The notes under the pieces were generated by a model, which saw only the letters and a program-made list of their open reading frames with translations, did no database searches and was not told where the DNA came from. 64,000 nt of DNA from a virus. The first letter of the stretch is position 1, and each line of letters begins with the position of its first letter. Shown here one piece after another: positions 26,540-63,607 of the stretch. Position numbers and translations under genes: made by a program. Where the stretch lies: the IMG/VR virus record IMGVR_UViG_3300033183_000212, positions 1 through 64,000 of that record; one strand, given 5' to 3'.

Positions 26540-27403
26540 ATGAAATCAATCCTCGCAGTCCTTGCTGCTACAGTCACGATCACAGCACAGGCAGCAATCA
26601 CTGGCGCTGGTGCGTCATTCCCGGCTCCGGTCTACTTCAAGTGGGCTGAGGCATATAAACAAGCGACTGGTAAAGAAGTTAATTATCAGTCAATCGGTTC
26701 GTCCGGTGGTATCAAACAGATCGTTAAGAAGACGGTCGACTTTGGTGCTTCGGATGTTGCACGTAAACAAGCTGACCTCGATAAGGATGGTCAAGTACAA
26801 TTCCCCACAGTGATGGGTGGAGTTGTTGTCGTTGTCAATCTACCAGGCGTGGAGAAAAACCAGATCAATCTTACAACCGATCAAGTCGGTAAGTTGTTTG
26901 CAGGGAAGGTAAGCAACTGGAAAGATTTGGATTCTTCGTTGCCTGACCTACCTGTGACAGTTGCACACAGAGCTGATGGTTCTGGTACGACTGCAATCTT
27001 CACAACCTACCTTGCAGAGAACGCCAAAGACTTTCATCTGAAAGCTGGTAAGTCTGTTAAGTGGGAAGGTAACACTGTTGGTGGTAAGGGTAATGCCGGT
27101 GTTGCGGCTATGGTCTCTAAGATCAAAGGAGCAGTCGGCTATGTGGAATATGCTTTTGCTAAACAAAACAATCTTACGACAACTACTCTCAATGGAGTAG
27201 CACCAAGTGCCGATACGTTCAAGTCAGGTGACTGGGACATCACTGCACAGACATTCATTATTGTATACCCCGATGGTAAGAATACAAAAGAGGTTTACAA
27301 GTTCTTTGAATGGTGTTATAATAATGACCAGATTGCAGAAGGTCTAGATTATGTTCCTCTGTCAGAAAAGACAAAGAACGAGTCAAGAAAACTTTGGCAA
27401 TAA
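26540..27403 (+). CDS. pstS: phosphate ABC transporter substrate-binding protein PstS
   Basis: Signal peptide plus ITGAGASFPAPVYFKWAEAYKQATGKEVNYQSIGSSGGIKQI and GSGTT. AGGAGAA SD. Confidence 0.9.
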   Translation: MKSILAVLAATVTITAQAAITGAGASFPAPVYFKWAEAYKQATGKEVNYQSIGSSGGIKQIVKKTVDFGASDVARKQADLDKDGQVQFPTVMGGVVVVVNLPGVEKNQINLTTDQVGKLFAGKVSNWKDLDSSLPDLPVTVAHRADGSGTTAIFTTYLAENAKDFHLKAGKSVKWEGNTVGGKGNAGVAAMVSKIKGAVGYVEYAFAKQNNLTTTTLNGVAPSADTFKSGDWDITAQTFIIVYPDGKNTKEVYKFFEWCYNNDQIAEGLDYVPLSEKTKNESRKLWQ

Positions 27404-27479
27404 ATAAATTATGGATCTGACGAGCAGTAATGTGTCGTCTTCACCGGATGCCTAGAGCGAGCAAACCCAGCTATCGGAT

Positions 27480-27830
27480 CCTAAAACATGGCTCACCCCT
27501 CTGCCTAGTGTACGGGTGGGTTCTCTTATATTGCTGTATGAAGCAATGAGAAAGGTGTCTTGGACGGCGGTTCGATTCCGCCCACCTCCACCATAAGGGT
27601 ACTAAGATAAGCTTGGTACTCGATGCATAGGGAACGCCTCCTCTGGTATCCTTATGATGGGGGTGTACTGGTTTCGACAGGGCAATGAGTAACAGAGTGG
27701 ACAGCACGTCAGGCGATCGACGTTAATGAAGCGAAAACTATAAATGCCAATGATGAGGTATTTTTGATGGCAGCTTAGTGCTAGATGGGGATTCGCAGGT
27801 GTTCCTTATTACCCAAACACCTGCACTATC
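27480..27830 (+). ncRNA. ssrA: circularly permuted (two-piece) tmRNA gene. The acceptor piece ends at CCA 27591-27593, the coding piece starts at 27659, and the tag ORF is 27746-27778.
   Basis: ggacggcggttcgattccgcccacctccacca is a T-arm plus acceptor 3' strand plus ACCA. 65 nt downstream, gggggtgtactggtttcgacaggg is the tmRNA 5' consensus. 27659-27665 pairs with 27583-27589 and includes a G3:U wobble. Resume frame: GCC AAT GAT GAG GTA TTT TTG ATG GCA GCT TAG = ANDEVFLMAA*. The outer ends are approximate. Confidence 0.8.
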
Positions 27831-27832
27831 AT

Positions 27833-27840
27833 TATAAATA
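27833..27840 (+). promoter_or_regulatory. T4-type late promoter box TATAAATA
   Basis: Exact octamer 8 nt before the desaturase ATG. Confidence 0.35.
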
Positions 27841-27848
27841 GTTATATT

Positions 27849-28481
27849 ATGGAAACAATAATCATAGCAATTATATTAGGTCTTGTATGGAGCCAAGTGA
27901 TATCGCATTTTGGCGCTAGTATATTATTACACCGATATTATTGTCATAAACAATTTAAAGTGCCAAAATGGTTTGAATGGGTTGGTTTATCCATGTTAAT
28001 GATTGCATGTATAAGAACACCAATAGGATGGATTGCATCTCATCGAATGCATCATGCATATTCAGACGGCCCTAAAGATCCTCATTCTGTAAAATACGTA
28101 GGATTCTGGAAAGTTTTATTTACTATGTGGGATATTCCAAAAATACCTATTAAATTTGCAAAGGATTTGTACCAAAATAAGACACTGGTATTTTTCCATA
28201 ATAATTGGCTAAAAATATTGATCTTTGTTTGGATTATATCCTATCTAATCAGCCCATATTTTTTTATTTCGTTTGCTCTTACACCATTTATTTTTGCTAA
28301 AATAGGATTTGGTTTATTAAATACTGTTGGACATAAAAACGGTCCAAGTAATGTGCCGTGGTTGAATCTTTTTATTGCTGGGGAAGGCTATCATAAAAAT
28401 CACCATGATAATGGTAAAAGAATTAGATTACATAAATTTGATACCGGTGGGTGGATAGCTGAAAAGGTATTTAAACCATGA
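27849..28481 (+). CDS. membrane fatty-acid desaturase (delta-9/stearoyl-CoA desaturase family, short form)
   Basis: Three His boxes: HRYYCH, HRMHHAYSDGPKDPH and GEGYHKNHH. Multiple TM segments. Confidence 0.8.
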   Translation: METIIIAIILGLVWSQVISHFGASILLHRYYCHKQFKVPKWFEWVGLSMLMIACIRTPIGWIASHRMHHAYSDGPKDPHSVKYVGFWKVLFTMWDIPKIPIKFAKDLYQNKTLVFFHNNWLKILIFVWIISYLISPYFFISFALTPFIFAKIGFGLLNTVGHKNGPSNVPWLNLFIAGEGYHKNHHDNGKRIRLHKFDTGGWIAEKVFKP

Positions 28482-29101
28482 AAAAACATGAATTGCCTTT
28501 AGTTGCTGAATTTGATTTAAAAATTGATCTACTAAGACTTAAAGAAGCATCAGACAATATAGCTTACACATATACTAATGTAATTGATGCAAATCCGGGA
28601 TTATGTATGAATCATAAGGAACTCGTAAAAAATGTATATGATAATTTTGAACAAATTAATTTGACAACAGCATCTGAAATTTTATCATCAACAACTTCAA
28701 TCAAAGAAAGATTAAAACGTAAAGAAGAACATCTATTTAATGTTCCAACCAAAAATTATACTAATAGTATTTTTGAAGAAATAGTAACACAATTAAAAGC
28801 ACCTGCAAGTAGAGTTAGACTTACTAAATTAGCAGCTGGAAAGGAAATTCCTTTTCACGTTGATTATGATGTTAATTATGCTGTAAGATGTATTGTTCCA
28901 ATTTACACAAATACAAAAGTAATCAATCAATTTAAAATTGCTGATAAAATTGAAAGTTATAATTTAGAAGCTGGTAAAGCTTATTTTTTGAATATAGGTT
29001 ATCCACATAGAGTGCATAACAATTCAAATGAAGATAGAATTGCGTTAATGTTTAGTTTGGATGGAACAGATGATTTGGAATCATTTAGAAATAGCAGATG
29101 A
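28478..29101 (+). CDS. cupin-fold 2OG/Fe(II) hydroxylase (Asp/Asn beta-hydroxylase-like), paralog 1
   Basis: IPFHVDYDVNYAVRCIVPIYTN ... GYPHRVHNNSNEDRIALMFSL. Confidence 0.55.
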   Translation: MKKHELPLVAEFDLKIDLLRLKEASDNIAYTYTNVIDANPGLCMNHKELVKNVYDNFEQINLTTASEILSSTTSIKERLKRKEEHLFNVPTKNYTNSIFEEIVTQLKAPASRVRLTKLAAGKEIPFHVDYDVNYAVRCIVPIYTNTKVINQFKIADKIESYNLEAGKAYFLNIGYPHRVHNNSNEDRIALMFSLDGTDDLESFRNSR

Positions 29102-29858
29102 AGTTCAAAATAAAGGCTATAAAGTTTTTAATGATATAGAATTTTCTGAACAACAATATATTGATTTTATGAAAGGCTTTGGTGAGTTAGAAGCACCAGG
29201 CCTTTTTATGAATCCAAAAAAATATCCTCAGTTGTTTATTGTTACCGGAATGAAAGATAAAGAAGGTAACAAAATTGGCATGTTTGGAGATGGCGAATTA
29301 GGTTGGCATTCAAATGGTAATAGCCGACATTTAATTGATAAAATTTTAATCAGTTTATATTGTGTACAAGGTGATCCTAATACTACACTAAGTGTATGCA
29401 ATACCTCAGATCCATTTTACCATCTTTCCGAAGAAGAACAAGAATACTGGAAATCAATTACTATTCGTTTAAAATTTCAGAATGATACAATGTATCATTT
29501 GGATGAAGATGATCCTGAATTAGAATTCATGAGTAAAAATAAAGGTAGTATTCGTAAACTGGTTGATGTTCATCCCCATACCGGAAAGTATTATTTCTAT
29601 TTCCCTTATCATTTTATTGTTAAAGCATGGGAAGGTAAAAGGCAAATCAATCATGAAAAAATGATTGAAAAATTGAAACCAATTATATTTAGAAGCAAAT
29701 ATCAATATCATCATATTTTTATGAAAGGTGATATGCTTTTAATGGATCAGTTTACTACACTACATAGAAGAACACCAGTGATGGGTAACAGACTTTTATG
29801 GAGAATTGCAGGGGATTATCAAAACGTATGCAAGGCGAACAAATCAAACGAAAGTTAA
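29061..29858 (+). CDS. TauD/TfdA-family 2OG/Fe(II) dioxygenase-like protein with H-S-N in place of HxD
   Basis: LGWHSNGN, LVDVHPHTGKYYFYF and GDMLLMDQFTTLHRR align with TauD blocks WHxD, HP.tG and GD..iWDN...H. Confidence 0.55.
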   Translation: MEQMIWNHLEIADEVQNKGYKVFNDIEFSEQQYIDFMKGFGELEAPGLFMNPKKYPQLFIVTGMKDKEGNKIGMFGDGELGWHSNGNSRHLIDKILISLYCVQGDPNTTLSVCNTSDPFYHLSEEEQEYWKSITIRLKFQNDTMYHLDEDDPELEFMSKNKGSIRKLVDVHPHTGKYYFYFPYHFIVKAWEGKRQINHEKMIEKLKPIIFRSKYQYHHIFMKGDMLLMDQFTTLHRRTPVMGNRLLWRIAGDYQNVCKANKSNES

Positions 29859-30700
29859 AAGCGTATCCTTGGGTTGATATTCCATGTCATAAAGATGTTT
29901 TGTTTCTATTAAAAGAACAAGATTTATCTCAGACATATTATAAACGTGGAAGCGGTAAAGCAACTCGTGATTTAGATAAAGTTGAAAAAGCACATCGAGA
30001 ATGGGTTAATGATATTATAGACCTATCGGAGTTTCCTCATTGCTATTTTACTAATGGTATAACAGATGCAATTCATCTTTGGCGAATAATAGAAACCAGG
30101 CCTTGGCAAAAATTCGATGGCGATTATCAATATATAAATATAATAGGTTCTGAGAGTTCTATTTGTTATGACGCATCAGACATTGATTTAAATAAACCAT
30201 TATATGTCTCAATTCCATCTGCTATTGATGGTAATATATTTGATTTAGATGACATTAGTGCTCCAGTTATTCTAGATTGCACATATGTAGGATCTACACA
30301 AATTAAAAAAATTAAAGTACCAAAAAACACAGAACAAGTGTTCTTTAGTTTCTCAAAAGGGTTTGGACTGATAGGACAGAGACTAGGCTTAATATATACA
30401 AAAGAGCCACACCCAATCTTAGATAGATTAAAAAAATTCGAAAACTGGAATTATGCAGGAGTAAAGACTATTGAATTATTGATTAATAATTTTAAAGTCG
30501 ATACTATGTGGAATAGATATAGAAAAAGACAATTAAAGATTTGTAGTCAATATAATTTTGAACCATCTGATTGTTTCTTTCTAGCAACTACAAAAGATGC
30601 ATATTATGCAAAACGGAGAAGGATGAAATTCAGCGACGATGCTCGTATTTGTATAACACCTCTATTTGATGATTACTTAAGTACAGAGAATAGTAAATGA
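29828..30700 (+). CDS. PLP-dependent aminotransferase-like protein (short)
   Basis: FFSFSKGFGLIGQRLGLIY matches the SxSK..G..G.R.G PLP-lysine block. The start is uncertain (29798 or 29828). Confidence 0.45.
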   Translation: MQGEQIKRKLKAYPWVDIPCHKDVLFLLKEQDLSQTYYKRGSGKATRDLDKVEKAHREWVNDIIDLSEFPHCYFTNGITDAIHLWRIIETRPWQKFDGDYQYINIIGSESSICYDASDIDLNKPLYVSIPSAIDGNIFDLDDISAPVILDCTYVGSTQIKKIKVPKNTEQVFFSFSKGFGLIGQRLGLIYTKEPHPILDRLKKFENWNYAGVKTIELLINNFKVDTMWNRYRKRQLKICSQYNFEPSDCFFLATTKDAYYAKRRRMKFSDDARICITPLFDDYLSTENSK

Positions 30701-31302
30701 CTATACGAAGATTTAAATTACAATACGACATTAATAAATTTCGAGATGAAATAGATGCGCTATGGCCTTTAGAAAAATACGGGTTTCACGGTGAATTTCC
30801 TACTCCTAATGGAACATATTATCAAAATATAAGAGAAGGCGAAATGCCTTCACATTTAAGAAAAGCTATTGAAAATAGTATTGGTAAAGCAATAAAAGAT
30901 TATTATTTTTTATGGGACTGGAGATGCTTAACTAAAGTTTTGTTAAAACACAGAGATGGTTGGGAAGATGCAAAGGGCAATCCAGATGGGATTTCAGAAT
31001 TCGATAAACATGTATTTGAAGAAGATGCTGAAATAATAGGAGTTCCTCCTCTAACGGTTGTAGTAGCATTAGAAAACAATTTTAGAATTGATATTCAAGA
31101 TAGTAAAACCAGTGAATGGAGAAGCGTAACATATGGTCCTGGAGATATAATATTTTTTAATAATGCAAAAGATCTTCATGGTGGTGAAGTATTAAATGAT
31201 CCAGATAACATACCAAGGAGATCTCTTAATTGTTATGTTGGACATGACCAACTTGCTAATGATTTAACATTCTGGGATAACCCGGATTATGATAAACAAT
31301 AA
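30697..31302 (+). CDS. hypothetical protein (possible 2OG oxygenase fold)
   Basis: GDIIFFNNAKDLHGGEVL...RRSLNCYV is only suggestive. Confidence 0.45.
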   Translation: MTIRRFKLQYDINKFRDEIDALWPLEKYGFHGEFPTPNGTYYQNIREGEMPSHLRKAIENSIGKAIKDYYFLWDWRCLTKVLLKHRDGWEDAKGNPDGISEFDKHVFEEDAEIIGVPPLTVVVALENNFRIDIQDSKTSEWRSVTYGPGDIIFFNNAKDLHGGEVLNDPDNIPRRSLNCYVGHDQLANDLTFWDNPDYDKQ

Positions 31303-31930
31303 TATCCCTTGGCCAGATATCCATATTAATAATGGAATAGGTAGAGTACCACTCAAAGAAAATTATGCCTTTGAAGATATGTGGTATCTTGATACACCTC
31401 AAGCTTTACCTATTTTTGAAAAACAAGCTGATATTATTATCGAACATCAATCAAAGGGAATAGTTGATATTGGATGTAGGCATGGACCTATCCTTGATAT
31501 TTTATATAAAAGAGGATATACAAATTTCAAATATATGGGATTTGACACTTCTGAAGAACCTATCAGATTAGCTCAAGAAAAATGGACGAATTCTAATAAT
31601 ATAGAATTCCGTAATGAAAGTTGGGAAAATATGGAAACTTTCATTGTTGATTTTGATGTCGATCAAGTTATCTGGTCAGGAGTATTGTTATATAAGCCAG
31701 AAGATCATTTTAATTTTTTTAATAATATTACAAAAGATTTTTATAATGCACGTAATGCAATTATACAAGAACCTTGTAACGATCAAAAATATTGGGATGA
31801 AAGATTAATACTTAACACAATCTCTGAAGAATTTGAAATTTATAAAAAGGAATATAAATCATTTAAAGAGCATATAATCAATGCCGAAATATTTGCTGGA
31901 CGTAGAATGATAATTGATATTGAATTATGA
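31289..31930 (+). CDS. SAM-dependent methyltransferase
   Basis: Motif I IVDIGCRHGPILDIL. Confidence 0.65.
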   Translation: MINNNIPWPDIHINNGIGRVPLKENYAFEDMWYLDTPQALPIFEKQADIIIEHQSKGIVDIGCRHGPILDILYKRGYTNFKYMGFDTSEEPIRLAQEKWTNSNNIEFRNESWENMETFIVDFDVDQVIWSGVLLYKPEDHFNFFNNITKDFYNARNAIIQEPCNDQKYWDERLILNTISEEFEIYKKEYKSFKEHIINAEIFAGRRMIIDIEL

Positions 31931-32544
31931 AAATTTGCGGAATAGCTTTTAGTTACAGTAAAAACTCTATGGCTTTTCGTGGATTAAGTTTGATGAACAA
32001 TTATTTAAATTTTCAATGGTATTGCCAAGTAACAGATATTCCATTATGCAATAGTAATATTCCGGATGGTAATGTTCCTAAATCCGTAGAAAGATTATGG
32101 AATAATATGAATAAATGTGACGTATTTGTTTTCTCTATACCAGAAACAACCGGCCATTATTCAGCTGCATTTAAAAACGTAATGGATTGGTTTGTTGTTA
32201 AATCTCAATTTAATTCTGATCTTGGTCAGAAATATCCAATGTCAAATAAACCGGTTGTTGTAATAACATTTACGCCAGTTTATAAAAATGCTGGCGACAG
32301 ACATTTTAATATGACTAAACATATATTGCAAGAAAAGCTTGGCGCAGATGTCATAGATATGATAGTTAAAAACGATTGTTGGCAACATGTTATACCAAAT
32401 AACTTTGAATTTGTAGCTGAAGAATGTAAACAAATATTAAGTATACCCCTTGAAAATAAAATTATTGAAAAGCCAGACATGGCTAAAGAGGTAGATGATT
32501 GGCAAAAAAAATATAAGGAATGGAACAATAAATGGCAAAATTAG
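31927..32544 (+). CDS. flavodoxin-fold NAD(P)H-dependent FMN reductase-like protein
   Basis: MKICGIAFSYSKNS... and DVFVFSIPETTGHYSAAFKNVMDW resemble the PF03358 pattern (tPeYn.s....lKnaiDw). Confidence 0.55.
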   Translation: MKICGIAFSYSKNSMAFRGLSLMNNYLNFQWYCQVTDIPLCNSNIPDGNVPKSVERLWNNMNKCDVFVFSIPETTGHYSAAFKNVMDWFVVKSQFNSDLGQKYPMSNKPVVVITFTPVYKNAGDRHFNMTKHILQEKLGADVIDMIVKNDCWQHVIPNNFEFVAEECKQILSIPLENKIIEKPDMAKEVDDWQKKYKEWNNKWQN

Positions 32545-32966
32545 ATACTACTGGATTGTTAATTTATAAAGACAATGATTTTAAACCATTTGAAATTGAT
32601 GAAACCAAACGTTATGTAATGTGTGGAGTTCCTGGAGCATTTACGCCTGGATGTACAGAAAAACATCTTCCGGGATATGTACAAGCATTAAATCAATTTT
32701 ATGAAAAAGGTATAGATCATATTATTTTCATGGGGGTAAATGACCCATGCGTAATGGATGCATGGAATAAGTTTCATGGTCATAAAGACATCATTGCGGT
32801 TGCTGATGCTGAAGCTGAGTTTACAAAAAGAATGGGATTTGATCATGATTATGGTCCTGGAATGGGTATTCGTTGCCGCCGCTTTGCTATTTTAATTGAA
32901 AACGGTGAAATGAAAAAAGAGATGCATATTCCATTTGCTCAAGGTGCGTTAGGGGAAATTTATTGA
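32532..32966 (+). CDS. peroxiredoxin (Prx5/atypical 2-Cys type)
   Basis: VPGAFTPGCTEKHLPGY active-site block. Confidence 0.8.
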   Translation: MAKLDTTGLLIYKDNDFKPFEIDETKRYVMCGVPGAFTPGCTEKHLPGYVQALNQFYEKGIDHIIFMGVNDPCVMDAWNKFHGHKDIIAVADAEAEFTKRMGFDHDYGPGMGIRCRRFAILIENGEMKKEMHIPFAQGALGEIY

Positions 32967-33607
32967 TTGATGCCGTTGCCGAATATTTAGATATTGATTT
33001 AGAGATTGAAAAATATCATTTAATATTTGATCAAGTAAATCAAGGCTATAATACATTTGGTAAAACCGAATGGCATAGCTATTCATTAGAAGATAATATC
33101 ACTGGAAAGGATTTACCGTTCTTAGAACTGTTTGAACCAATCCTTATTGAAATGCGCAATGTGCATCCTCATATACAAAAAAGATCTACTGGTTTTAATT
33201 ATGCAAATTCTTTAGAAAAAGATTTGTTTATTCATACCGATGTAGATTATGATACAAAACACCCAAAACATTTTAATATGGTTATTCCCATATTTGGTAA
33301 AGCTATAATAAATTATTATGAAACCCGTGAAGAAGAGATTTGGTTACCAGAAAAAAATGCACATGGCTATGCATATTATCATGAATTTTATTTGCGTAAT
33401 AAATCTGGCTATGAAGAATTTAAAAAGAAAAGAAAGATTGGTGAAATTATAGTAGAAGATAAGCCGGTTTTAATTGATACTAATCTAATGCATGGTGTTG
33501 AAATCCTTAAATCTCCTCGTTGTGCTTGGGTCACACGCTGGAATAATATTCCAGTTCACCATGATTTTTATACATGGAAATCTAGAGTAGAAAGAATATT
33601 AAAATGA
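32963..33607 (+). CDS. cupin-fold hydroxylase-like protein, paralog 2
   Basis: LFIHTDVDYDTKHPKHFNMVIPIFG and LMHGVEIL resemble 28478-29101. TTG start overlaps the upstream stop. Confidence 0.45.
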   Translation: MIDAVAEYLDIDLEIEKYHLIFDQVNQGYNTFGKTEWHSYSLEDNITGKDLPFLELFEPILIEMRNVHPHIQKRSTGFNYANSLEKDLFIHTDVDYDTKHPKHFNMVIPIFGKAIINYYETREEEIWLPEKNAHGYAYYHEFYLRNKSGYEEFKKKRKIGEIIVEDKPVLIDTNLMHGVEILKSPRCAWVTRWNNIPVHHDFYTWKSRVERILK

Positions 33608-34158
33608 TGCGAGTTGTTCCGTATATAGAAAATGGAAAAAGACTGTATGTAAATGATGATTTATGTATGGATGCTTTTTTAAAAATGGAAATAGAAAGCC
33701 AAAAAGATAGACTATACAAAAATTATACTTTTAATAATTTAAAATTAAATGAAATGTATAATTTTAATTTTGTATTTGATAATGACAATCCTGTGTTAGC
33801 ATCAGGATGCCAAGTATTTAATGAGAATGTAATTAGAGTTTTTAGTAGATATTATGTATTTGATGAATATAGAACCGATGGTAAAAAATTATTAGATAAA
33901 TCAGATGACTTTATGGAATTAAAATATAGTCTTAATCTTATTAAAAAATTTCCATTAATAATATGGGCTAGAGATAAATCATCTGGTTTTTTTAAAAGAC
34001 TTAAAGCCGAAAGATCTGATATATTCAAAAATTGGCAAATACACCATGAAAAAATAGAATTAAAATATAAAAACAATTTTCATAATATATTTTATATTGG
34101 TGACATTAGTCATTTACACAACCTACAATATGAAGTCTATAGTCAAAAGAAGCGTTAA
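33604..34158 (+). CDS. hypothetical protein
   Basis: ATGA-coupled ORF. AT-rich. No motif. Confidence 0.45.
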   Translation: MMRVVPYIENGKRLYVNDDLCMDAFLKMEIESQKDRLYKNYTFNNLKLNEMYNFNFVFDNDNPVLASGCQVFNENVIRVFSRYYVFDEYRTDGKKLLDKSDDFMELKYSLNLIKKFPLIIWARDKSSGFFKRLKAERSDIFKNWQIHHEKIELKYKNNFHNIFYIGDISHLHNLQYEVYSQKKR

Positions 34159-58684: not shown

Positions 58685-59494
58685 ATGAACACCTTGATAT
58701 ATCAATGTTGGGACGGACCAGAGCGTCCTGGAAATCTCGCTGGAATCAAAGAGACTCAAGCATATGCCAAGCGAATCGGCTCTGAATACATGTATGAACA
58801 TGATGCTAAGTTTAGAACAGATCTTGGATCTTATTCTCCTAACTTTGGTAAGCTTAAACCCGTATATGATAAACAGTTTGAAAAGTATGACTATGTGATG
58901 TACACAGACTGTGACGTCATTCCAGTTAAAGACTGCAGAGAAAACATCTTTGAATGGTTTGCATCTACTGGAGCTGAAGTTGGAATCTGTGAAGAGTGGA
59001 ACGCACCACTTGCAAGAAAGAAGCACACCATCGGTGGTGGAATCAATAATGAGAACGATGAGAAGTGGGTAGGTATCGTACAGAAGAAGTGGCCTGTTGT
59101 CATGCCTAGGACTGTTGATGGCTTACCTAAAGTGTACAACACCGGTGTTCTCATGTTTTCTCGTGAAGGTTTACTCAAGGCAAGAGAAAGACTCTTTGAC
59201 TTTGCAAAGTATGTCAACCTAGCGAGAGTGTTTAATCTTCCTGCGTTCTATGGCTGCGATCAACCTTACTTTCATGCCATGTTAGAGGTGTGTAAGTTTA
59301 ACTGGATCACCATGCCTTACAAATGGAACAGCTCGGTTCACTACGATCCAGGTGTCAAGACTAAACCGAGGCCCGTGATTGACCTGAGAAAAGATGCCAA
59401 CTTTGTGCACGTTCAACTCAACGGAGCAGACCATTGGGATGAAGATAAGATCTTGAGAGTAGTGAATGAGCCAGTGAGTGAGTGGAACCTATGA
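58685..59494 (+). CDS. glycosyltransferase, paralog A
   Basis: MNTLIYQCWDG...; YVMYTDCDVIP DxD block. Confidence 0.6.
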   Translation: MNTLIYQCWDGPERPGNLAGIKETQAYAKRIGSEYMYEHDAKFRTDLGSYSPNFGKLKPVYDKQFEKYDYVMYTDCDVIPVKDCRENIFEWFASTGAEVGICEEWNAPLARKKHTIGGGINNENDEKWVGIVQKKWPVVMPRTVDGLPKVYNTGVLMFSREGLLKARERLFDFAKYVNLARVFNLPAFYGCDQPYFHAMLEVCKFNWITMPYKWNSSVHYDPGVKTKPRPVIDLRKDANFVHVQLNGADHWDEDKILRVVNEPVSEWNL

Positions 59495-60180
59495 AGAACC
59501 TGATCCTTCAGTACTGGACTGGCAACATGCCTGAGTGGGCCAGACTTGCAATGGAGTCCATTAAGTTATACTCGAGTAAGATCGGTGCTGAGTATCAGCT
59601 AGTGAGCGGATGGCCTGTTGGAGAGTACAGAGGTGTAGTGTCACAGAAGATATGTCTAGTCAATGAAGAGTATGATGAGTATGATAATGTGCTGATGCTT
59701 GACACGGACATGGTTTACTCTGGCATTGTAGATGATGTGTTTCAGTATGAAGGTGTAGGTCGACTGCACTTGAAAGCAATGGGATCTAAGGAAGCAACTA
59801 AGCAAGGAAGGTACTGGCCTAATCTCTATAAGCAGGGTGCACCTTTATTCTTTGGTAACTTCGTCAAGTTAAATCGTGAGGAGAGAATCAAGCTTCGCGA
59901 GCACATGCCTTCAGAGCAGATGATTCGTGAAAACATGAGTAATCCAAACCTGTCTAGATTTAAGACTTCTAACCCGCCAAACGATGAACAGAACATGCAC
60001 TATATGATTCATCATAGCGGTGCACTTAAGGATAAGGCTGAGCTCATGGTTCCACACGATAGGTTCTGTGATCTGCCTGAAGAAGCTCATCCAAAGGCAA
60101 CGCTACTGCACTTCTGCAATCACAGAAAGAACTTCATCATTGATTATATTCGTAAGAATCATAAGTTAAAATTACTATGA
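59491..60180 (+). CDS. glycosyltransferase, paralog B
   Basis: MKNLILQYWTG...; NVLMLDTDMVY. ATGA overlap. Confidence 0.55.
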   Translation: MKNLILQYWTGNMPEWARLAMESIKLYSSKIGAEYQLVSGWPVGEYRGVVSQKICLVNEEYDEYDNVLMLDTDMVYSGIVDDVFQYEGVGRLHLKAMGSKEATKQGRYWPNLYKQGAPLFFGNFVKLNREERIKLREHMPSEQMIRENMSNPNLSRFKTSNPPNDEQNMHYMIHHSGALKDKAELMVPHDRFCDLPEEAHPKATLLHFCNHRKNFIIDYIRKNHKLKLL

Positions 60181-60875
60181 AAAATATTATTCTTCAGCAC
60201 TTTCATCCTATGCGTCCTAAAGTTATTGAGGAGATGGAGAAGCGCAAAGGTCTTCCTTTTATCGTTGAGAAGAGCATTGAAAACATTCGTAAGTACGCCG
60301 AGAAGCTAAGCGCAGAGTATAAGCTGCTCGATGGTGAGCCGTTTCAAAAAGGACTCAGAGCTCAGTGTCAGAAGTGTGCAGCGATCAATGAAGAGTATGA
60401 TGACTATGACGTGGTGGTTGTACTAGACACTGATAAGTTTGTTACGACTACGTGCACTGAAAACGTGTTTGAGGCTAAAGGTATCGCGCCGTTTGACGAT
60501 GTACATAGAAACAGACAGCTGCCTCAGTTTATTCAAGAGTTTCCACACTTAGGCAACAAGAACTATCCACTCTGGTCTGGCGCAATCTATGTCATGCCTC
60601 GAGACTTTCGTCAGTTAATGAGAGCACAGATCAACGATTCAATGCGTAAAGTCTTTGAGCTGATCAGTCCTCGTCCATACGTTGATGAAGGCATCTTCCA
60701 TGTCTTGTGCCACAAGGCTAAGTTTAAGTTAGATAAGTACTTAGATGAGAAGTGGGATTATAGCAGCTACTTGCCTAATCCTGAGAAAGCAAACATGATT
60801 CACATTCGTCACCGACCAAAGAGTCGTGATGAGAACTATATGGATTTAGTGAAAGCAGGAATTATTGCGGAATGA
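60177..60875 (+). CDS. glycosyltransferase, paralog C
   Basis: MKNIILQHF...; VVVVLDTDKFV. ATGA overlap. Confidence 0.55.
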   Translation: MKNIILQHFHPMRPKVIEEMEKRKGLPFIVEKSIENIRKYAEKLSAEYKLLDGEPFQKGLRAQCQKCAAINEEYDDYDVVVVLDTDKFVTTTCTENVFEAKGIAPFDDVHRNRQLPQFIQEFPHLGNKNYPLWSGAIYVMPRDFRQLMRAQINDSMRKVFELISPRPYVDEGIFHVLCHKAKFKLDKYLDEKWDYSSYLPNPEKANMIHIRHRPKSRDENYMDLVKAGIIAE

Positions 60876-61561
60876 AAAACTTAGAGAGAACTTGTCCTGT
60901 TGTCGTAAATGAACTGCGGGATCACGGCCATCAGATAAACGTAGTGTATGACATCGGAGCAAACGATGGAAGATGGTACAAAGACTGGAAGCCTCTTCTA
61001 CCTAAAGCTCAGTTCATTATGTTTGAAGCAAATCCAAACAGCAAGCTGAGATACAGTATAGAGAAACATGAAAAACGTTTTCTTCAAGTGCTGTCTGATG
61101 CAGATGATAAAACAGTTCAGTTCTTTCTGGCAAACAATGGTAAAGAATCAACTGGTGATAGCTATTACAAAGAGTTGACTGCTAACTACTCTGAAGGAAA
61201 GTCAGTGTTGCTGAAGACTAAAACTCTCAACACGATGATCTCTGAAAACAACTTGCCTCTTCCAGACTTTATTAAGATGGACACTCAAGGTTCAGAGGTT
61301 GATATCATGAAGGGAGGGTCTGATGCGTTGAATCACGCTAAGGTTGCACTGATTGAAGTTTCAGTGATGCCTTATAACACCAACGCACCAATCTTTAACG
61401 ATTACATAGATACAATGTACTCTTATGGTTTCATTCCTTCTGGAGTACACAACATTGCAATGAGAAAAGGCGTAGTGAACCAGATGGACATCGTCTTTAC
61501 TAAGTCTGACATCAATAACGAGATTCATCAGCACAGAGACCGGTATAAAGGATTTGTATAA
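60872..61561 (+). CDS. FkbM-family methyltransferase
   Basis: VYDIGANDGRW and FIKMDTQGSEVDIMKG. Confidence 0.7.
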   Translation: MKNLERTCPVVVNELRDHGHQINVVYDIGANDGRWYKDWKPLLPKAQFIMFEANPNSKLRYSIEKHEKRFLQVLSDADDKTVQFFLANNGKESTGDSYYKELTANYSEGKSVLLKTKTLNTMISENNLPLPDFIKMDTQGSEVDIMKGGSDALNHAKVALIEVSVMPYNTNAPIFNDYIDTMYSYGFIPSGVHNIAMRKGVVNQMDIVFTKSDINNEIHQHRDRYKGFV

Positions 61562-62277
61562 TGCACGCATATGTAATCACAGTCGACGGCAATCTCATCT
61601 CTCAAAGTGCCGCGAACAACTGCATTGATTCTCATAAAAAATTTAAGCAAGACTTTCCTATTGAAAGATATAATGCAGTAAGGCCTGAACAAGTAGATGA
61701 AGAGTTTAAGTATCTTTCATTTGTTTGGACTTATCCTTGGGATGAACCGAGGACCGACTTTAAGAGTGGCTTAAAGCTCACTCCTTACAGGACTGCAGAC
61801 CGCAAGAAGAGGATCGCTTGTTTTTTAAGTCACTATCAACTATGGCAAAGGTGTGTACTTAAAAAGAGGCCTATCCTAGTGCTTGAACACGATGCGCTAT
61901 TTATTCGACCTTTTAACTACCAGTATACATTAGATTCAAAGTATGGTATAATTGGCATCAACAATCCGCTTGGCGCGACGCGTCGGGCTGATGTGTTTGA
62001 CAGTCAGGTACAAACTATGCGAGGAGAGAACTTAGATGCTGATGGAGTTTTACCGGTACCAACTATTGATAACTTCGATATACCTCAAGGTCTGGCAGGG
62101 AATTCTGCCTACGTCATCAAGCCACACGGCGCAGAGGAACTCTTAGACGCGGTGAACGCTCACGGTGCGTGGCCAAACGACGCAATCATGTGCAAGCAGA
62201 TCTTACCAAACGTACTAGGCGTTACAAAGAAGTACTACACAAAAGTGCAAGGCACTAGATCTACAACTACACTATGA
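61561..62277 (+). CDS. glycosyltransferase family 25-like, copy 1
   Basis: RIACFLSHYQLWQRC and ILVLEHDALF. Confidence 0.7.
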   Translation: MHAYVITVDGNLISQSAANNCIDSHKKFKQDFPIERYNAVRPEQVDEEFKYLSFVWTYPWDEPRTDFKSGLKLTPYRTADRKKRIACFLSHYQLWQRCVLKKRPILVLEHDALFIRPFNYQYTLDSKYGIIGINNPLGATRRADVFDSQVQTMRGENLDADGVLPVPTIDNFDIPQGLAGNSAYVIKPHGAEELLDAVNAHGAWPNDAIMCKQILPNVLGVTKKYYTKVQGTRSTTTL

Positions 62278-62930
62278 ACTTTAAAGCATTCGTCATTACA
62301 GTAAAAGACAACGAAAAGTCAGAGGAAGCAGCAGATAGGTGCATCAAGTCTGCTGTTCGATTTGATCTTGAAGTTGAGAAGCACTACGGATATAACGCAA
62401 AGGATGACGTTATAGCGGTTGCTAAGCAAGAAGGAATCCTGTCAATCGACCGGTTCAGGGCAAATGAGTACTCACGATTTCCAAACGTACTCGCTGCGTT
62501 TTTATCTCATAGGTCTCTGTGGAAGAAATCTCACCTTGAAGAGCAGCCAGTCATCATCTTTGAGCATGATGCGGTTGTAGTTGACGCTATTCCTTTTAAC
62601 ACGCCGTTTAAGCACCTAGTGTCTCTCGGCAAACCATCCTATGGTAAGTTCAACATTCCATCTGTCATTGGACTAGGTCCTCTAAAGTCTAAGCCGTACT
62701 TGCCTGGTGCTCATGCTTATATGCTCAAGCCTAGTGGAGCAAATATGCTTCTCAGAGCTGCGGTGCAGAAAGCTGAACCGACAGACATCTTTATCAACAT
62801 GTATAACTTCCCTTGGCTCCAAGAGTACTATCCTTGGCCAGTTGAGGTGATAGATAATTTTTCGACGATTCAATACATCTATGGAAGCTATGCAAAGCAC
62901 AGTTATGATGAGAACTATCAGATAGTATGA
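62274..62930 (+). CDS. glycosyltransferase family 25-like, copy 2
   Basis: LAAFLSHRSLWKK and VIIFEHDAVV. Tandem paralog of the previous gene. Confidence 0.65.
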   Translation: MNFKAFVITVKDNEKSEEAADRCIKSAVRFDLEVEKHYGYNAKDDVIAVAKQEGILSIDRFRANEYSRFPNVLAAFLSHRSLWKKSHLEEQPVIIFEHDAVVVDAIPFNTPFKHLVSLGKPSYGKFNIPSVIGLGPLKSKPYLPGAHAYMLKPSGANMLLRAAVQKAEPTDIFINMYNFPWLQEYYPWPVEVIDNFSTIQYIYGSYAKHSYDENYQIV

Positions 62931-63607
62931 TTTCAGTTGCATGCGTGTACTGGGGAAACAAGTTTCCTATTGAGTACGTTTATAATCTTAGATCTGCTGT
63001 AAAGAGAAACACAAGTGTTCCTCATGAATTTGTCGTGTTCTCTGACAGGCAGATACCAGACGTAAAGACAAAGATCCTTGACAAAGGACTAGAAGGTTGG
63101 TGGAACAAGCTTCAGATGTTCAACACTAAGTTTGCGTTGAACAAAGAGGTTGTTTACTTTGATCTCGATACACTCATCACCGGTAATATAGACTGGCTAA
63201 TGAAGTATGAAACAACGTTTATGGGTATTGAAGACTTAGGATCTATAAACGCTCATCAGCCGCACTTGAAAGGAAGACTGCAGAGTGGAGTGATGAAGTG
63301 GAACTATCCTCTCGGTAAGTCTATCTGGGACATCTTTGTTCAGAACCAACATGTAATGGGAATGATTCGAGGAGACGGAGAGTTCTTAAACGAATACATA
63401 CCAAAAGAGAGGAGAGAGCTGATTCAGCGAATCTTTCCGGGCAAGTTAAAGTCTTATAAGTATCAGGTCTATAAAGAAGGCGTGAAGGACACTGCAATCG
63501 TGTGCTTTCACGGGCGGCCTAGTATCATACAGGCGATGACTGAAACTGTACAGACGCCTAGAGCTAAGTTTGAGCCTAGAGAGTGGATCAAGGATTATTG
63601 GAAATGA
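62927..63607 (+). CDS. putative glycosyltransferase
   Basis: VVYFDLDTLITGNIDWL is a DxD-like block. Confidence 0.45.
   Translation: MISVACVYWGNKFPIEYVYNLRSAVKRNTSVPHEFVVFSDRQIPDVKTKILDKGLEGWWNKLQMFNTKFALNKEVVYFDLDTLITGNIDWLMKYETTFMGIEDLGSINAHQPHLKGRLQSGVMKWNYPLGKSIWDIFVQNQHVMGMIRGDGEFLNEYIPKERRELIQRIFPGKLKSYKYQVYKEGVKDTAIVCFHGRPSIIQAMTETVQTPRAKFEPREWIKDYWK

Follow-up and report, generated by a model that had tools for sequence, protein, structure and literature searches.

We analyzed a 64,000-nt stretch of viral DNA (IMG/VR virus record IMGVR_UViG_3300033183_000212, positions 1 to 64,000; hereafter the window) in a follow-up of positions 27480–27830, for which an earlier note made from the sequence had proposed a phage-encoded, circularly permuted, two-piece transfer-messenger RNA (tmRNA). 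ARAGORN reported one gene only in the 64-kb window, a permuted tmRNA at 27501–27869 with the tag ANDEVFLMAA*, and no tRNA genes. Comparison with Rfam yielded matches over the full model length to tmRNA_permuted (RF04321; 142.4 bits, gathering score 47, E 5e-28) and to beta_tmRNA (RF01850; 133.2 bits, gathering score 84, E 2e-40). These scores exceed the gathering scores by a wide margin and lie far above chance; the complete permuted two-piece gene is thereby confirmed by ARAGORN and two Rfam models, and a covariance-model match, the absence of which would have counted against the note, is present.

All elements of the gene lie on the plus strand, with the acceptor (3′) piece located 5′ of the coding piece. 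The acceptor piece (27529–27593) was delimited by Rfam alignments and pair counts on 24 relatives; its 5′ end probably falls at ∼27529, because a TTGACA-N17-TAnAAT box is found directly upstream of the equivalent site in many relatives. It comprises the 3′ strands of helix P2 (27532–27536 and 27556–27562), a T-arm that can be read from the sequence (GGCGG-UUCGAUU-CCGCC, 27566–27582), the acceptor 3′ strand CACCUCC (27583–27589) and an encoded ACCA (27590–27593). The following 65-nt intervening sequence (27594–27658), which would be lost on maturation, is closed by a stem between UAAGG (27594–27598) and CCUUA (27650–27654), contains no open reading frame (ORF) and ends in UGAU immediately before G1 of the coding piece.

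The coding piece runs from G1 at 27659 to ∼27825, the latter boundary being estimated from the last conserved hairpin. It begins, 65 nt past the ACCA end at 27593, with the 24-mer GGGGGUGUACUGGUUUCGACAGGG; its acceptor 5′ strand GGGGGUG (27659–27665) is followed by UACUGGUUUCGACAGGG. The two acceptor strands form seven pairs (G1:C, G2:C, G3:U, G4:C, G5:C, U6:A and G7:C), including the alanine identity pair G3:U70, which corresponds to G27661:U27587. Further tRNA-like features are the T-loop in the T-arm and, past the acceptor 5′ strand, UGGUUUCGAC as the analogue of a D-loop; UACUGGUUUCGA agrees with the consensus of the Rfam model. The pieces are joined by P2 through 7 bp (27556–27562 with 27678–27684) and 5 bp (27532–27536 with 27702–27706). 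Stem 1 of pseudoknot PK1 (CGUC/GACG, 27707–27710 with 27719–27722) lies upstream of the resume codon GCC, which opens the tag frame GCC AAT GAT GAG GTA TTT TTG ATG GCA GCT TAG (27746–27778), encoding ANDEVFLMAA. The piece is completed by a 3′ pseudoknot (GGGGA, 27787–27791, with UCCUU, 27803–27807) and a 3′ hairpin (GCAGGUGU/ACACCUGC, 27795–27802 with 27817–27824).

The sequence statements of the earlier note on the T-arm, acceptor strand and ACCA upstream of the tmRNA 5′ end, on the 7-bp acceptor stem with G3:U and on the tag frame, for which ARAGORN agrees, all hold. The note was also right in treating a 78-aa ORF on the minus strand (27471–27707) as an artefact: this frame lies wholly on the RNA gene and its leader, overlaps covarying RNA helices and has no match in Pfam or PHROG.

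Conservation in a viral family and type of the tmRNA

Relatives were collected by scanning IMG/VR with the 17-mer AUUGCUGUAUGAAGCAA (27530–27546), which represents the distal P2 strand. The scan returned at least 120 loci on contigs of up to 349 kb, at least 104 of which carry a permuted tmRNA according to ARAGORN; the family statistics given here refer to 104 tags and 105 analyzed copies among the matches listed. The first three acceptor pairs, GGG/UCC with G3:U, are kept in 105 of 105 copies, and nine compensated versions exist for positions 4–7, among them GGGGGUG/CACCUCC (41 copies) and GGGCCUG/CAGGUCC (41 copies). Nine Watson-Crick versions of the T stem were found, and ACCA is encoded in 97 of the 105 copies. 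In a 24-sequence alignment, the structure derived from the window was paired in 81.9% of the cells, compared with 43–57% in slid controls; 26 pairs change on both sides, and the covariation score was reached by none of 500 shuffles. The T stem is 100% paired in this alignment, with three covarying pairs. The P2 helices are 98–99% paired in relatives; covariation of the distal one is impossible in this sample, one of its strands having been fixed by the search. All five pairs of the stem that closes the intervening sequence change on both sides in relatives, the sequence as a whole varying between 24 and 239 nt across the family, and PK1 stem 1 is compensated (CGGU/ACCG and others). MAFFT misaligned the variable 3′ hairpin (43.8% paired), hence an anchor-based extraction was used, which recovered the hairpin in 102 of 104 copies; its stem takes 57 different forms, and its loop is conserved. 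The UCCUU of this loop is the family-wide pseudoknot partner of the GGGG(A) run.

The encoded peptide is conserved to a similar degree: 94 of 104 tags start with AND, 95 end in LAA (92 in ALAA), 90 have a length of 10 aa, and the stop codon is present in all 104. Judged from these comparisons, both the RNA structure and the tag peptide are evidently under selection, and the conservation of the tag excludes that the gene acts only through its tRNA-like domain. When family members were run through Rfam, beta_tmRNA was the best model at 90–180 bits, well under the scores of cellular copies. On these matches the viral family is large, of beta type and mostly unannotated, with some contigs exceeding 300 kb. 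The sole exception in type is the pair L134/L146, whose best clan match is alpha_tmRNA (58 bits) and in which the leader module described below lies inside the intervening sequence. Several relatives contain a small ORF in the intervening sequence (L012, L017, L021, L028 and L168–L170). In L012 and L017 this ORF fills the intervening sequence, its TGA stop lying within a conserved U(U/A)UGAU just 5′ of G1 (a 26-aa hydrophobic peptide in L012, ∼66 aa in L017); in L021, L028 and L168–L170 it continues past G1 into the coding piece.

From the gene order, the earlier note had suggested an alphaproteobacterial host, and it had proposed a comparison with the Rfam alpha_tmRNA model. Within the Rfam tmRNA clan, beta_tmRNA is the best model and the sole clan member retained at the locus; alpha_tmRNA (RF01849) was outcompeted by it in clan competition, in which the tool does not display the alpha score. 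A scan of species genomes for the 24-mer combined with the ANDE tag pattern led to one metagenome-assembled genome only (L009), a member of the Proteobacteria with a bona fide cellular beta-type gene (323 bits, tag ANDEHFAIAA). The 25-nt PK1 core GUCAGGCGAUCGACGUUAAUGAAGC (27708–27732) is identical in L009, in two high-G+C contigs (L166 and L167, 61% G+C; L167 scores 269 bits) and in eight low-G+C viral contigs. The tag, in addition, fits the beta consensus ANDEhFAmAA (ANDEHFAMAA in the Rfam model). By these sequence criteria the tmRNA is of the betaproteobacterial and not of the alphaproteobacterial type, and an alphaproteobacterial host is unsupported because beta_tmRNA is the best model, the 24-mer and the PK1 core are shared with beta-type genes and the tag follows the beta consensus.

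Xanthomonadales use a one-piece tmRNA. Cultured Xanthomonas phages carry the same permuted family, and gene order alone is therefore a weak host marker; the permuted form appears to say little about the host. Permuted calls are also listed in phages of Stenotrophomonas, Bordetella, Citrobacter and others (PMC9004378, Table S1). As the permuted architecture spreads among phages of hosts that probably have different types of tmRNA, predicting a host from a phage tmRNA is unsafe. A window-specific 22-mer from the P2/PK1 region, GAGTAACAGAGTGGACAGCACG, had no match in 185,579 species genomes.

The nearest relatives of the gene, L002, L008, L133 and L135 and about a dozen metagenome contigs, have a leader and a tRNA-like domain that are nearly the same base for base; in L008 this holds also for the 3′ tail. 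Gene and leader stay together in these relatives even next to a different upstream gene. Their intervening sequence is another one, their PK1 region is ∼20 nt longer, and their tag is ANDEVFALAA. The variable segments (the intervening sequence, and PK1 through the tag) thus look exchanged with the core kept; the exchange partner may have been a host gene or another phage.

The window further differs from L002, L008, L133 and L135 by a ∼40-nt insertion between leader and tmRNA, absent from these four loci, that contains a terminator-like hairpin (27490–27522, plus strand) followed by the U-rich run UUCUCUUAUAUU. The hairpin is among the terminator-scan matches, has a minimum free energy of −13.1 kcal/mol and occurs once in the window. 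The earlier note had proposed that 27494–27508 pairs with 27781–27790. We rejected this pairing: its 5′ partner sits in the window-only insertion, the 3′ tails of relatives are identical, the proposed duplex reaches −10.3 kcal/mol versus −13.1 kcal/mol for the insertion's own fold, and the GGGG(A) run at 27787–27791 pairs with UCCUU at 27803–27807.

Leader RNA module and genomic surroundings

Directly 5′ of the tmRNA, covariation and covariance models define a three-helix leader RNA module of ∼70 nt (27411–27483, plus strand). Its stem P1 pairs 27413–27417 with 27477–27481 (5 bp in the window; a 7-bp closing stem in the consensus). The module's P2 pairs 27419–27423 with 27435–27439 and is extended by GCA[GUAA]UGU (27424–27433) into a GNRA-capped hairpin. 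The junction J2/3, CUUCACCGGAUGCCU, is an invariant 14-nt strand, CU(U/C)CACCGGAUGCCU, and P3 (27454 with 27474, and 27456–27458 with 27470–27472) has a G·A mismatch and an invariant 11-nt loop, GAGCAAACCCA.

Conservation in relatives extends over the 75 nt ahead of the acceptor piece, also in L008, whose upstream gene is not PstS. A gapped pattern scan of metagenomes yielded 24 true module loci; 19 distinct sequences were used for covariation analysis. Pairing in these extends to 98.7% of the cells, and double-sided changes affect 9 of the 16 pairs; slid controls gave covariation scores of at most 0.149, compared with 0.458 for the module, a value that none of 500 shuffles reached. RNAfold on the leader alone gave a z-score of ∼0, single-sequence folding being uninformative here and covariation required. 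Two covariance models of the module (R1 and R2) produced matches of 95–107 bits; the window contains one copy, and the other ∼110 tmRNA loci contain none.

A search of 27380–27900 with 4227 covariance models, at E values up to 10, revealed only the tmRNA and noise, and no Rfam family for the module; blastn found no match to it in GenBank phages, and ARAGORN no tRNA at this position. Several known folds were considered and discarded. A tRNA-like cloverleaf would account for the 7-bp closing stem, the single U and the hairpin, but the module has no anticodon arm, T-loop or CCA, and ARAGORN is silent. In the case of a hammerhead, CUGACGAG proved to be a covarying helix and not a catalytic core; for a ribozyme resembling that of hepatitis delta virus the strand order is wrong, and a glutamine riboswitch has no Rfam match.

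The module occurs in four contexts. It is found 5′ of two-piece tmRNAs, right after a promoter-like box; inside the tmRNA intervening sequence (L134 and L146), with compensatory changes; in phage tRNA arrays, mostly in the order tRNA-Ala, module, tRNA-Gln, where it lies ∼10 nt upstream of the next tRNA and is often followed by a T-run; and in 5′ untranslated regions, after a promoter-like box and before a CUCCUU...AAGGAG hairpin (anti-Shine-Dalgarno/Shine-Dalgarno) and a start codon. In two of the loci (L142 and L147), the module is followed by the gene for a 115-aa protein, whose only match, phrog_24554, is of unknown function. The terminator-like hairpin at 27490–27522 resembles one located 5′ of the module in L152 and L158 (conserved loop CUCUGC...UGUAC, covarying stems, U-rich tail); in the window this recurrent hairpin follows the module, and in tRNA-array loci it precedes it.

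The box AATAAATA (27399–27406, plus strand), 6 nt before the leader RNA, overlaps the PstS stop codon in the window, L133 and L135 and is a possible T4-type late promoter. ATAAATA is found 15–70 nt upstream of the ORF starts at 2348, 2858, 12791, 26245 (minus strand), 27849 and 37054; it is not enriched in the window (18 found, 14.9 expected). TATAAT-type boxes occupy the equivalent position in L002 and L008. The order in the window, promoter-like box, module, terminator-like hairpin and tmRNA, resembles the layout of an attenuator; no alternative pairing that would switch it was found in the window.

The module is thus a structured RNA without a described family and possibly a new motif. It may act in cis as a switch or attenuator for downstream RNA genes, or it may be a small RNA freed by tRNA-processing enzymes. 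We put forward tentatively, at somewhat less than even chances, that it represents a new class of phage RNA element, either a ligand- or protein-sensing switch for tmRNA and tRNA supply, by analogy with the glutamine riboswitch proposed in phage Melnitz, or a stable small RNA produced by tRNA-processing enzymes. If the module is regulatory, it would reveal by what means a phage governs its supply of translation RNAs in the course of infection.

The matches of the ORFs in Pfam and PHROG identify the window as part of a T4-like myophage. It encodes a T4-type family B polymerase (phrog_262, E = 0), a DnaB/gp41-like helicase, a primase, UvsX, an alpha-glucosyltransferase, a C5 methylase, two thymidylate synthases, both subunits of ribonucleotide reductase and PstS; the tmRNA gene is thus phage-borne, as the earlier note had stated. 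The closest polymerases in GenBank are those of Phage C48C1 (Kyanoviridae; 53% identity) and, next, of cyanomyophages (48–50%). No integrase was found among the ORFs scanned against Pfam and PHROG. SmpB is likewise missing from the window, where tblastn with an approximate E. coli SmpB query gave only noise (E ≥ 1.9).

Directly upstream of the leader lies the gene for a PstS-like phosphate-binding protein (26540–27403, plus strand; Pfam PBP_like_2, 1e-38; phrog_5385). The same order of PstS and tmRNA is seen in L002, L133 and L135, and not in L008. The G+C content is ∼42% across the window, and an island of 30% (27849–34158) begins right after the tmRNA. A TATAAATA box at 27833–27840, after the tmRNA, is probably used by the following ORF, with its start at 27849. 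The island consists of a same-strand run with a fatty-acid-desaturase-like protein, an Asp/Asn beta-hydroxylase-like cupin, a TauD-family dioxygenase, an S-adenosylmethionine-dependent methyltransferase, an FMN reductase and several unknowns, and looks like an acquired cluster for small-molecule or lipid modification. Five successive same-strand ORFs of 218–238 aa at 59482–63607 are possibly a paralogous array.

Proposed function and rival explanations

We consider it likely, with good though not full confidence, that a lytic T4-like phage carries a functional ssrA gene at this locus, permuted and two-piece, of the betaproteobacterial type. The mechanism proposed below for its expression, processing, charging and benefit to the phage is derived from established tmRNA biology. 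A precursor would be transcribed from ∼27413 and contain the structured leader, the acceptor piece, the 65-nt intervening sequence and the coding piece. Host RNase P would cut 5′ of G27659, and 3′ trimming would expose the encoded CCA at 27593; the two pieces would then be held together by the 7-bp acceptor stem and the P2 helices. Host alanyl-tRNA synthetase (AlaRS) would charge the RNA via G3:U70. Since no SmpB is encoded in the window, the phage RNA would depend on host SmpB, which together with EF-Tu would carry it to ribosomes stalled on broken mRNAs. Translation would resume at GCC 27746 and add ANDEVFLMAA, a tag for host proteases. The benefit would be that ribosomes are kept free during the decay of host and early transcripts, with the recycling of tagged proteins as a by-product.

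Several features of the window's copy weigh against a functional gene. P5 around the stop codon has only 3 bp; PK1 stem 1 was found, and a second PK1 stem could not be assigned. In the Rfam alignment the middle of P2 fits the beta model poorly, with non-canonical pairs flagged, and the score of 133 bits is far under that of cellular beta tmRNAs (269–323 bits). The promoter scan revealed no clear sigma-70 promoter upstream of the gene, and the terminator-like hairpin at 27490–27522 stands between the putative start and the acceptor piece. Finally, that the RNA fits the SmpB, AlaRS and proteases of the host is an assumption.

The best of the rival explanations, though an improbable one, accepts a working tmRNA and sees its main use in remodelling of the proteome: the LMAA end of the tag would steer tagged host or early proteins to a particular host protease or adaptor, and their amino acids would be recycled, with the rescue of ribosomes in second place. 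The earlier note had drawn attention to the unusual tag end as a possible means of retargeting, and it is indeed rare in the phage family: among the matches listed, LMAA ends 2 of 104 tags, those of the window and of L022. The last four residues moreover set the tag apart from ANDEVFALAA in L002, L008, L133 and L135, the rest of the RNA being nearly identical, and the same idea is raised for phage Melnitz (PMC9004378). However, methionine is the consensus of the Rfam beta model at this position, so that the tag may merely match that of the host. Furthermore, tmRNA tags only nascent chains on stalled ribosomes, and no mechanism is known by which host proteins would be tagged selectively.

Less probable still is that the RNA serves as a decoy that titrates host SmpB, EF-Tu or AlaRS and thereby inhibits host trans-translation, as has been proposed for mycobacteriophage DS6A (PMC4131195). 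Besides this precedent, the decoy could explain why the tRNA-like domain is the best conserved part and why the window encodes no SmpB. It leaves unexplained the conservation across the family of the tag frame, the resume-codon context, the stop codon, PK1 and the 3′ pseudoknot, parts that a decoy does not need and that DS6A has lost. Least probable, and hardly tenable, is a passenger, either a recently captured host gene without a role or an attachment-site mimic left by integration into host ssrA: tmRNA genes are common integration sites with fragments in prophages (PMC4383910, PMC9004378) and the PK1 core is identical to that of bacterial copies, but a complete gene is present instead of a 3′ fragment, the carrier genome is T4-like with no integrase among the ORFs scanned, the window-specific 22-mer is without a match in the species genomes, and the family is old and has diversified in viral contigs with compensatory changes.

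Comparison with known systems

Reports of phage tmRNAs go back to the mycobacteriophage genomes (PMC4131195), and 79 phage sequences are contained in the current tmRNA database (PMC11915505). In a 2022 survey, 402 of 18,146 phage genomes contained a tmRNA, in 133 unique forms, of which 53 were two-piece; its text assigns 50 of these to marine or aquatic phages. The survey also describes Melnitz, a T4-like phage in which a glutamine riboswitch is linked to the two-piece ssrA (PMC9004378). The high novelty that the earlier note had implied thus does not stand, since two-piece phage tmRNAs are already catalogued. What goes beyond the known cases is the size and poor annotation of the beta-type viral family, the unusual LMAA tag and the apparently undescribed RNA module. 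For C48C1 and for tmRNA in Xanthomonas phages, the literature search returned nothing specific.

The closest known system is the betaproteobacterial two-piece tmRNA (RF01850), a lineage attributed in PMC9004378 to Sharkady and Williams 2004. It has the same permuted order and a matching layout of P2, T-arm and acceptor stem; the identical 5′ 24-mer and PK1 core are shared, as are the resume context UAAAUGCC, the tag pattern ANDExFxxAA and a 3′ hairpin loop CCUUnUUACC that forms a pseudoknot with GGGG. In contrast to these genes, the gene of the window resides in a T4-like phage and not in a cell and scores 133 bits instead of 269–323; its distal P2 strand, UUGCUGUAUGAAGCAA, is typical of the viral family, its intervening sequence comprises 65 nt versus 28 nt in L009, and a structured leader and an extra hairpin take the place of the promoter-proximal 5′ end.

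Among phages, comparable two-piece tmRNAs are known from aquatic myophages, namely Methylophilales phage Melnitz, the Pelagibacter phages HTVC008M and Mosig, and cyanomyophages such as S-CAM1 and S-SSM7 (PMC9004378, Table S1). These are likewise lytic, T4-like carriers of aquatic type with a complete permuted gene, for which the same roles have been proposed (PMC9004378). Their copies are of alpha or cyano type, unlike the beta type found here; cyano-type examples among our loci are L001 and L004, with tags ANNIV.... A glutamine riboswitch is attached in Melnitz and Mosig, whereas the structured element of the window is not a glutamine riboswitch (no match to glnA or Downstream-peptide in 27380–27900 at E up to 10).

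Within GenBank phages, a blastn search with the window matched only the T-arm region of one Xanthomonas phage (69 nt), and a typical family member matched five Xanthomonas and Stenotrophomonas phage records from the P2 strand to the CCA end; blastn detected no similarity to GenBank phages beyond the acceptor piece. In the Xanthomonas phages Rb1 and X1, permuted tmRNAs were called by ARAGORN and RF04321, with acceptor pieces 77–81% identical over ∼65 nt. These genes lie at ∼16.27–16.70 kb of PQ569993 (L131) and ∼120.98–121.43 kb of OQ427096 (L132), respectively, positions at which the GenBank records have no annotation. Their tags, ANDDNFRPALRLAA and VAANDADYSVARYA, are longer than that of the window, and their hosts are Xanthomonadales. 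The acceptor piece was likewise matched by blastn in Xanthomonas phage BUDD and Stenotrophomonas phage vB_Sm_QDWS359, where a coding sequence labelled 'hypothetical protein' covers the match.

The leader module has no counterpart among described families; it is a well-supported structured RNA linked to both tRNA and tmRNA genes. Mycobacteriophages of the Bxz1 group and DS6A likewise encode trans-translation RNAs, of one piece and standard order in the former and reduced to the tRNA-like domain, with the tag lost, in the latter, whereas the gene described here is permuted and complete (PMC4131195). The window would add one more case of a large lytic phage that brings its own ribosome-rescue RNA.

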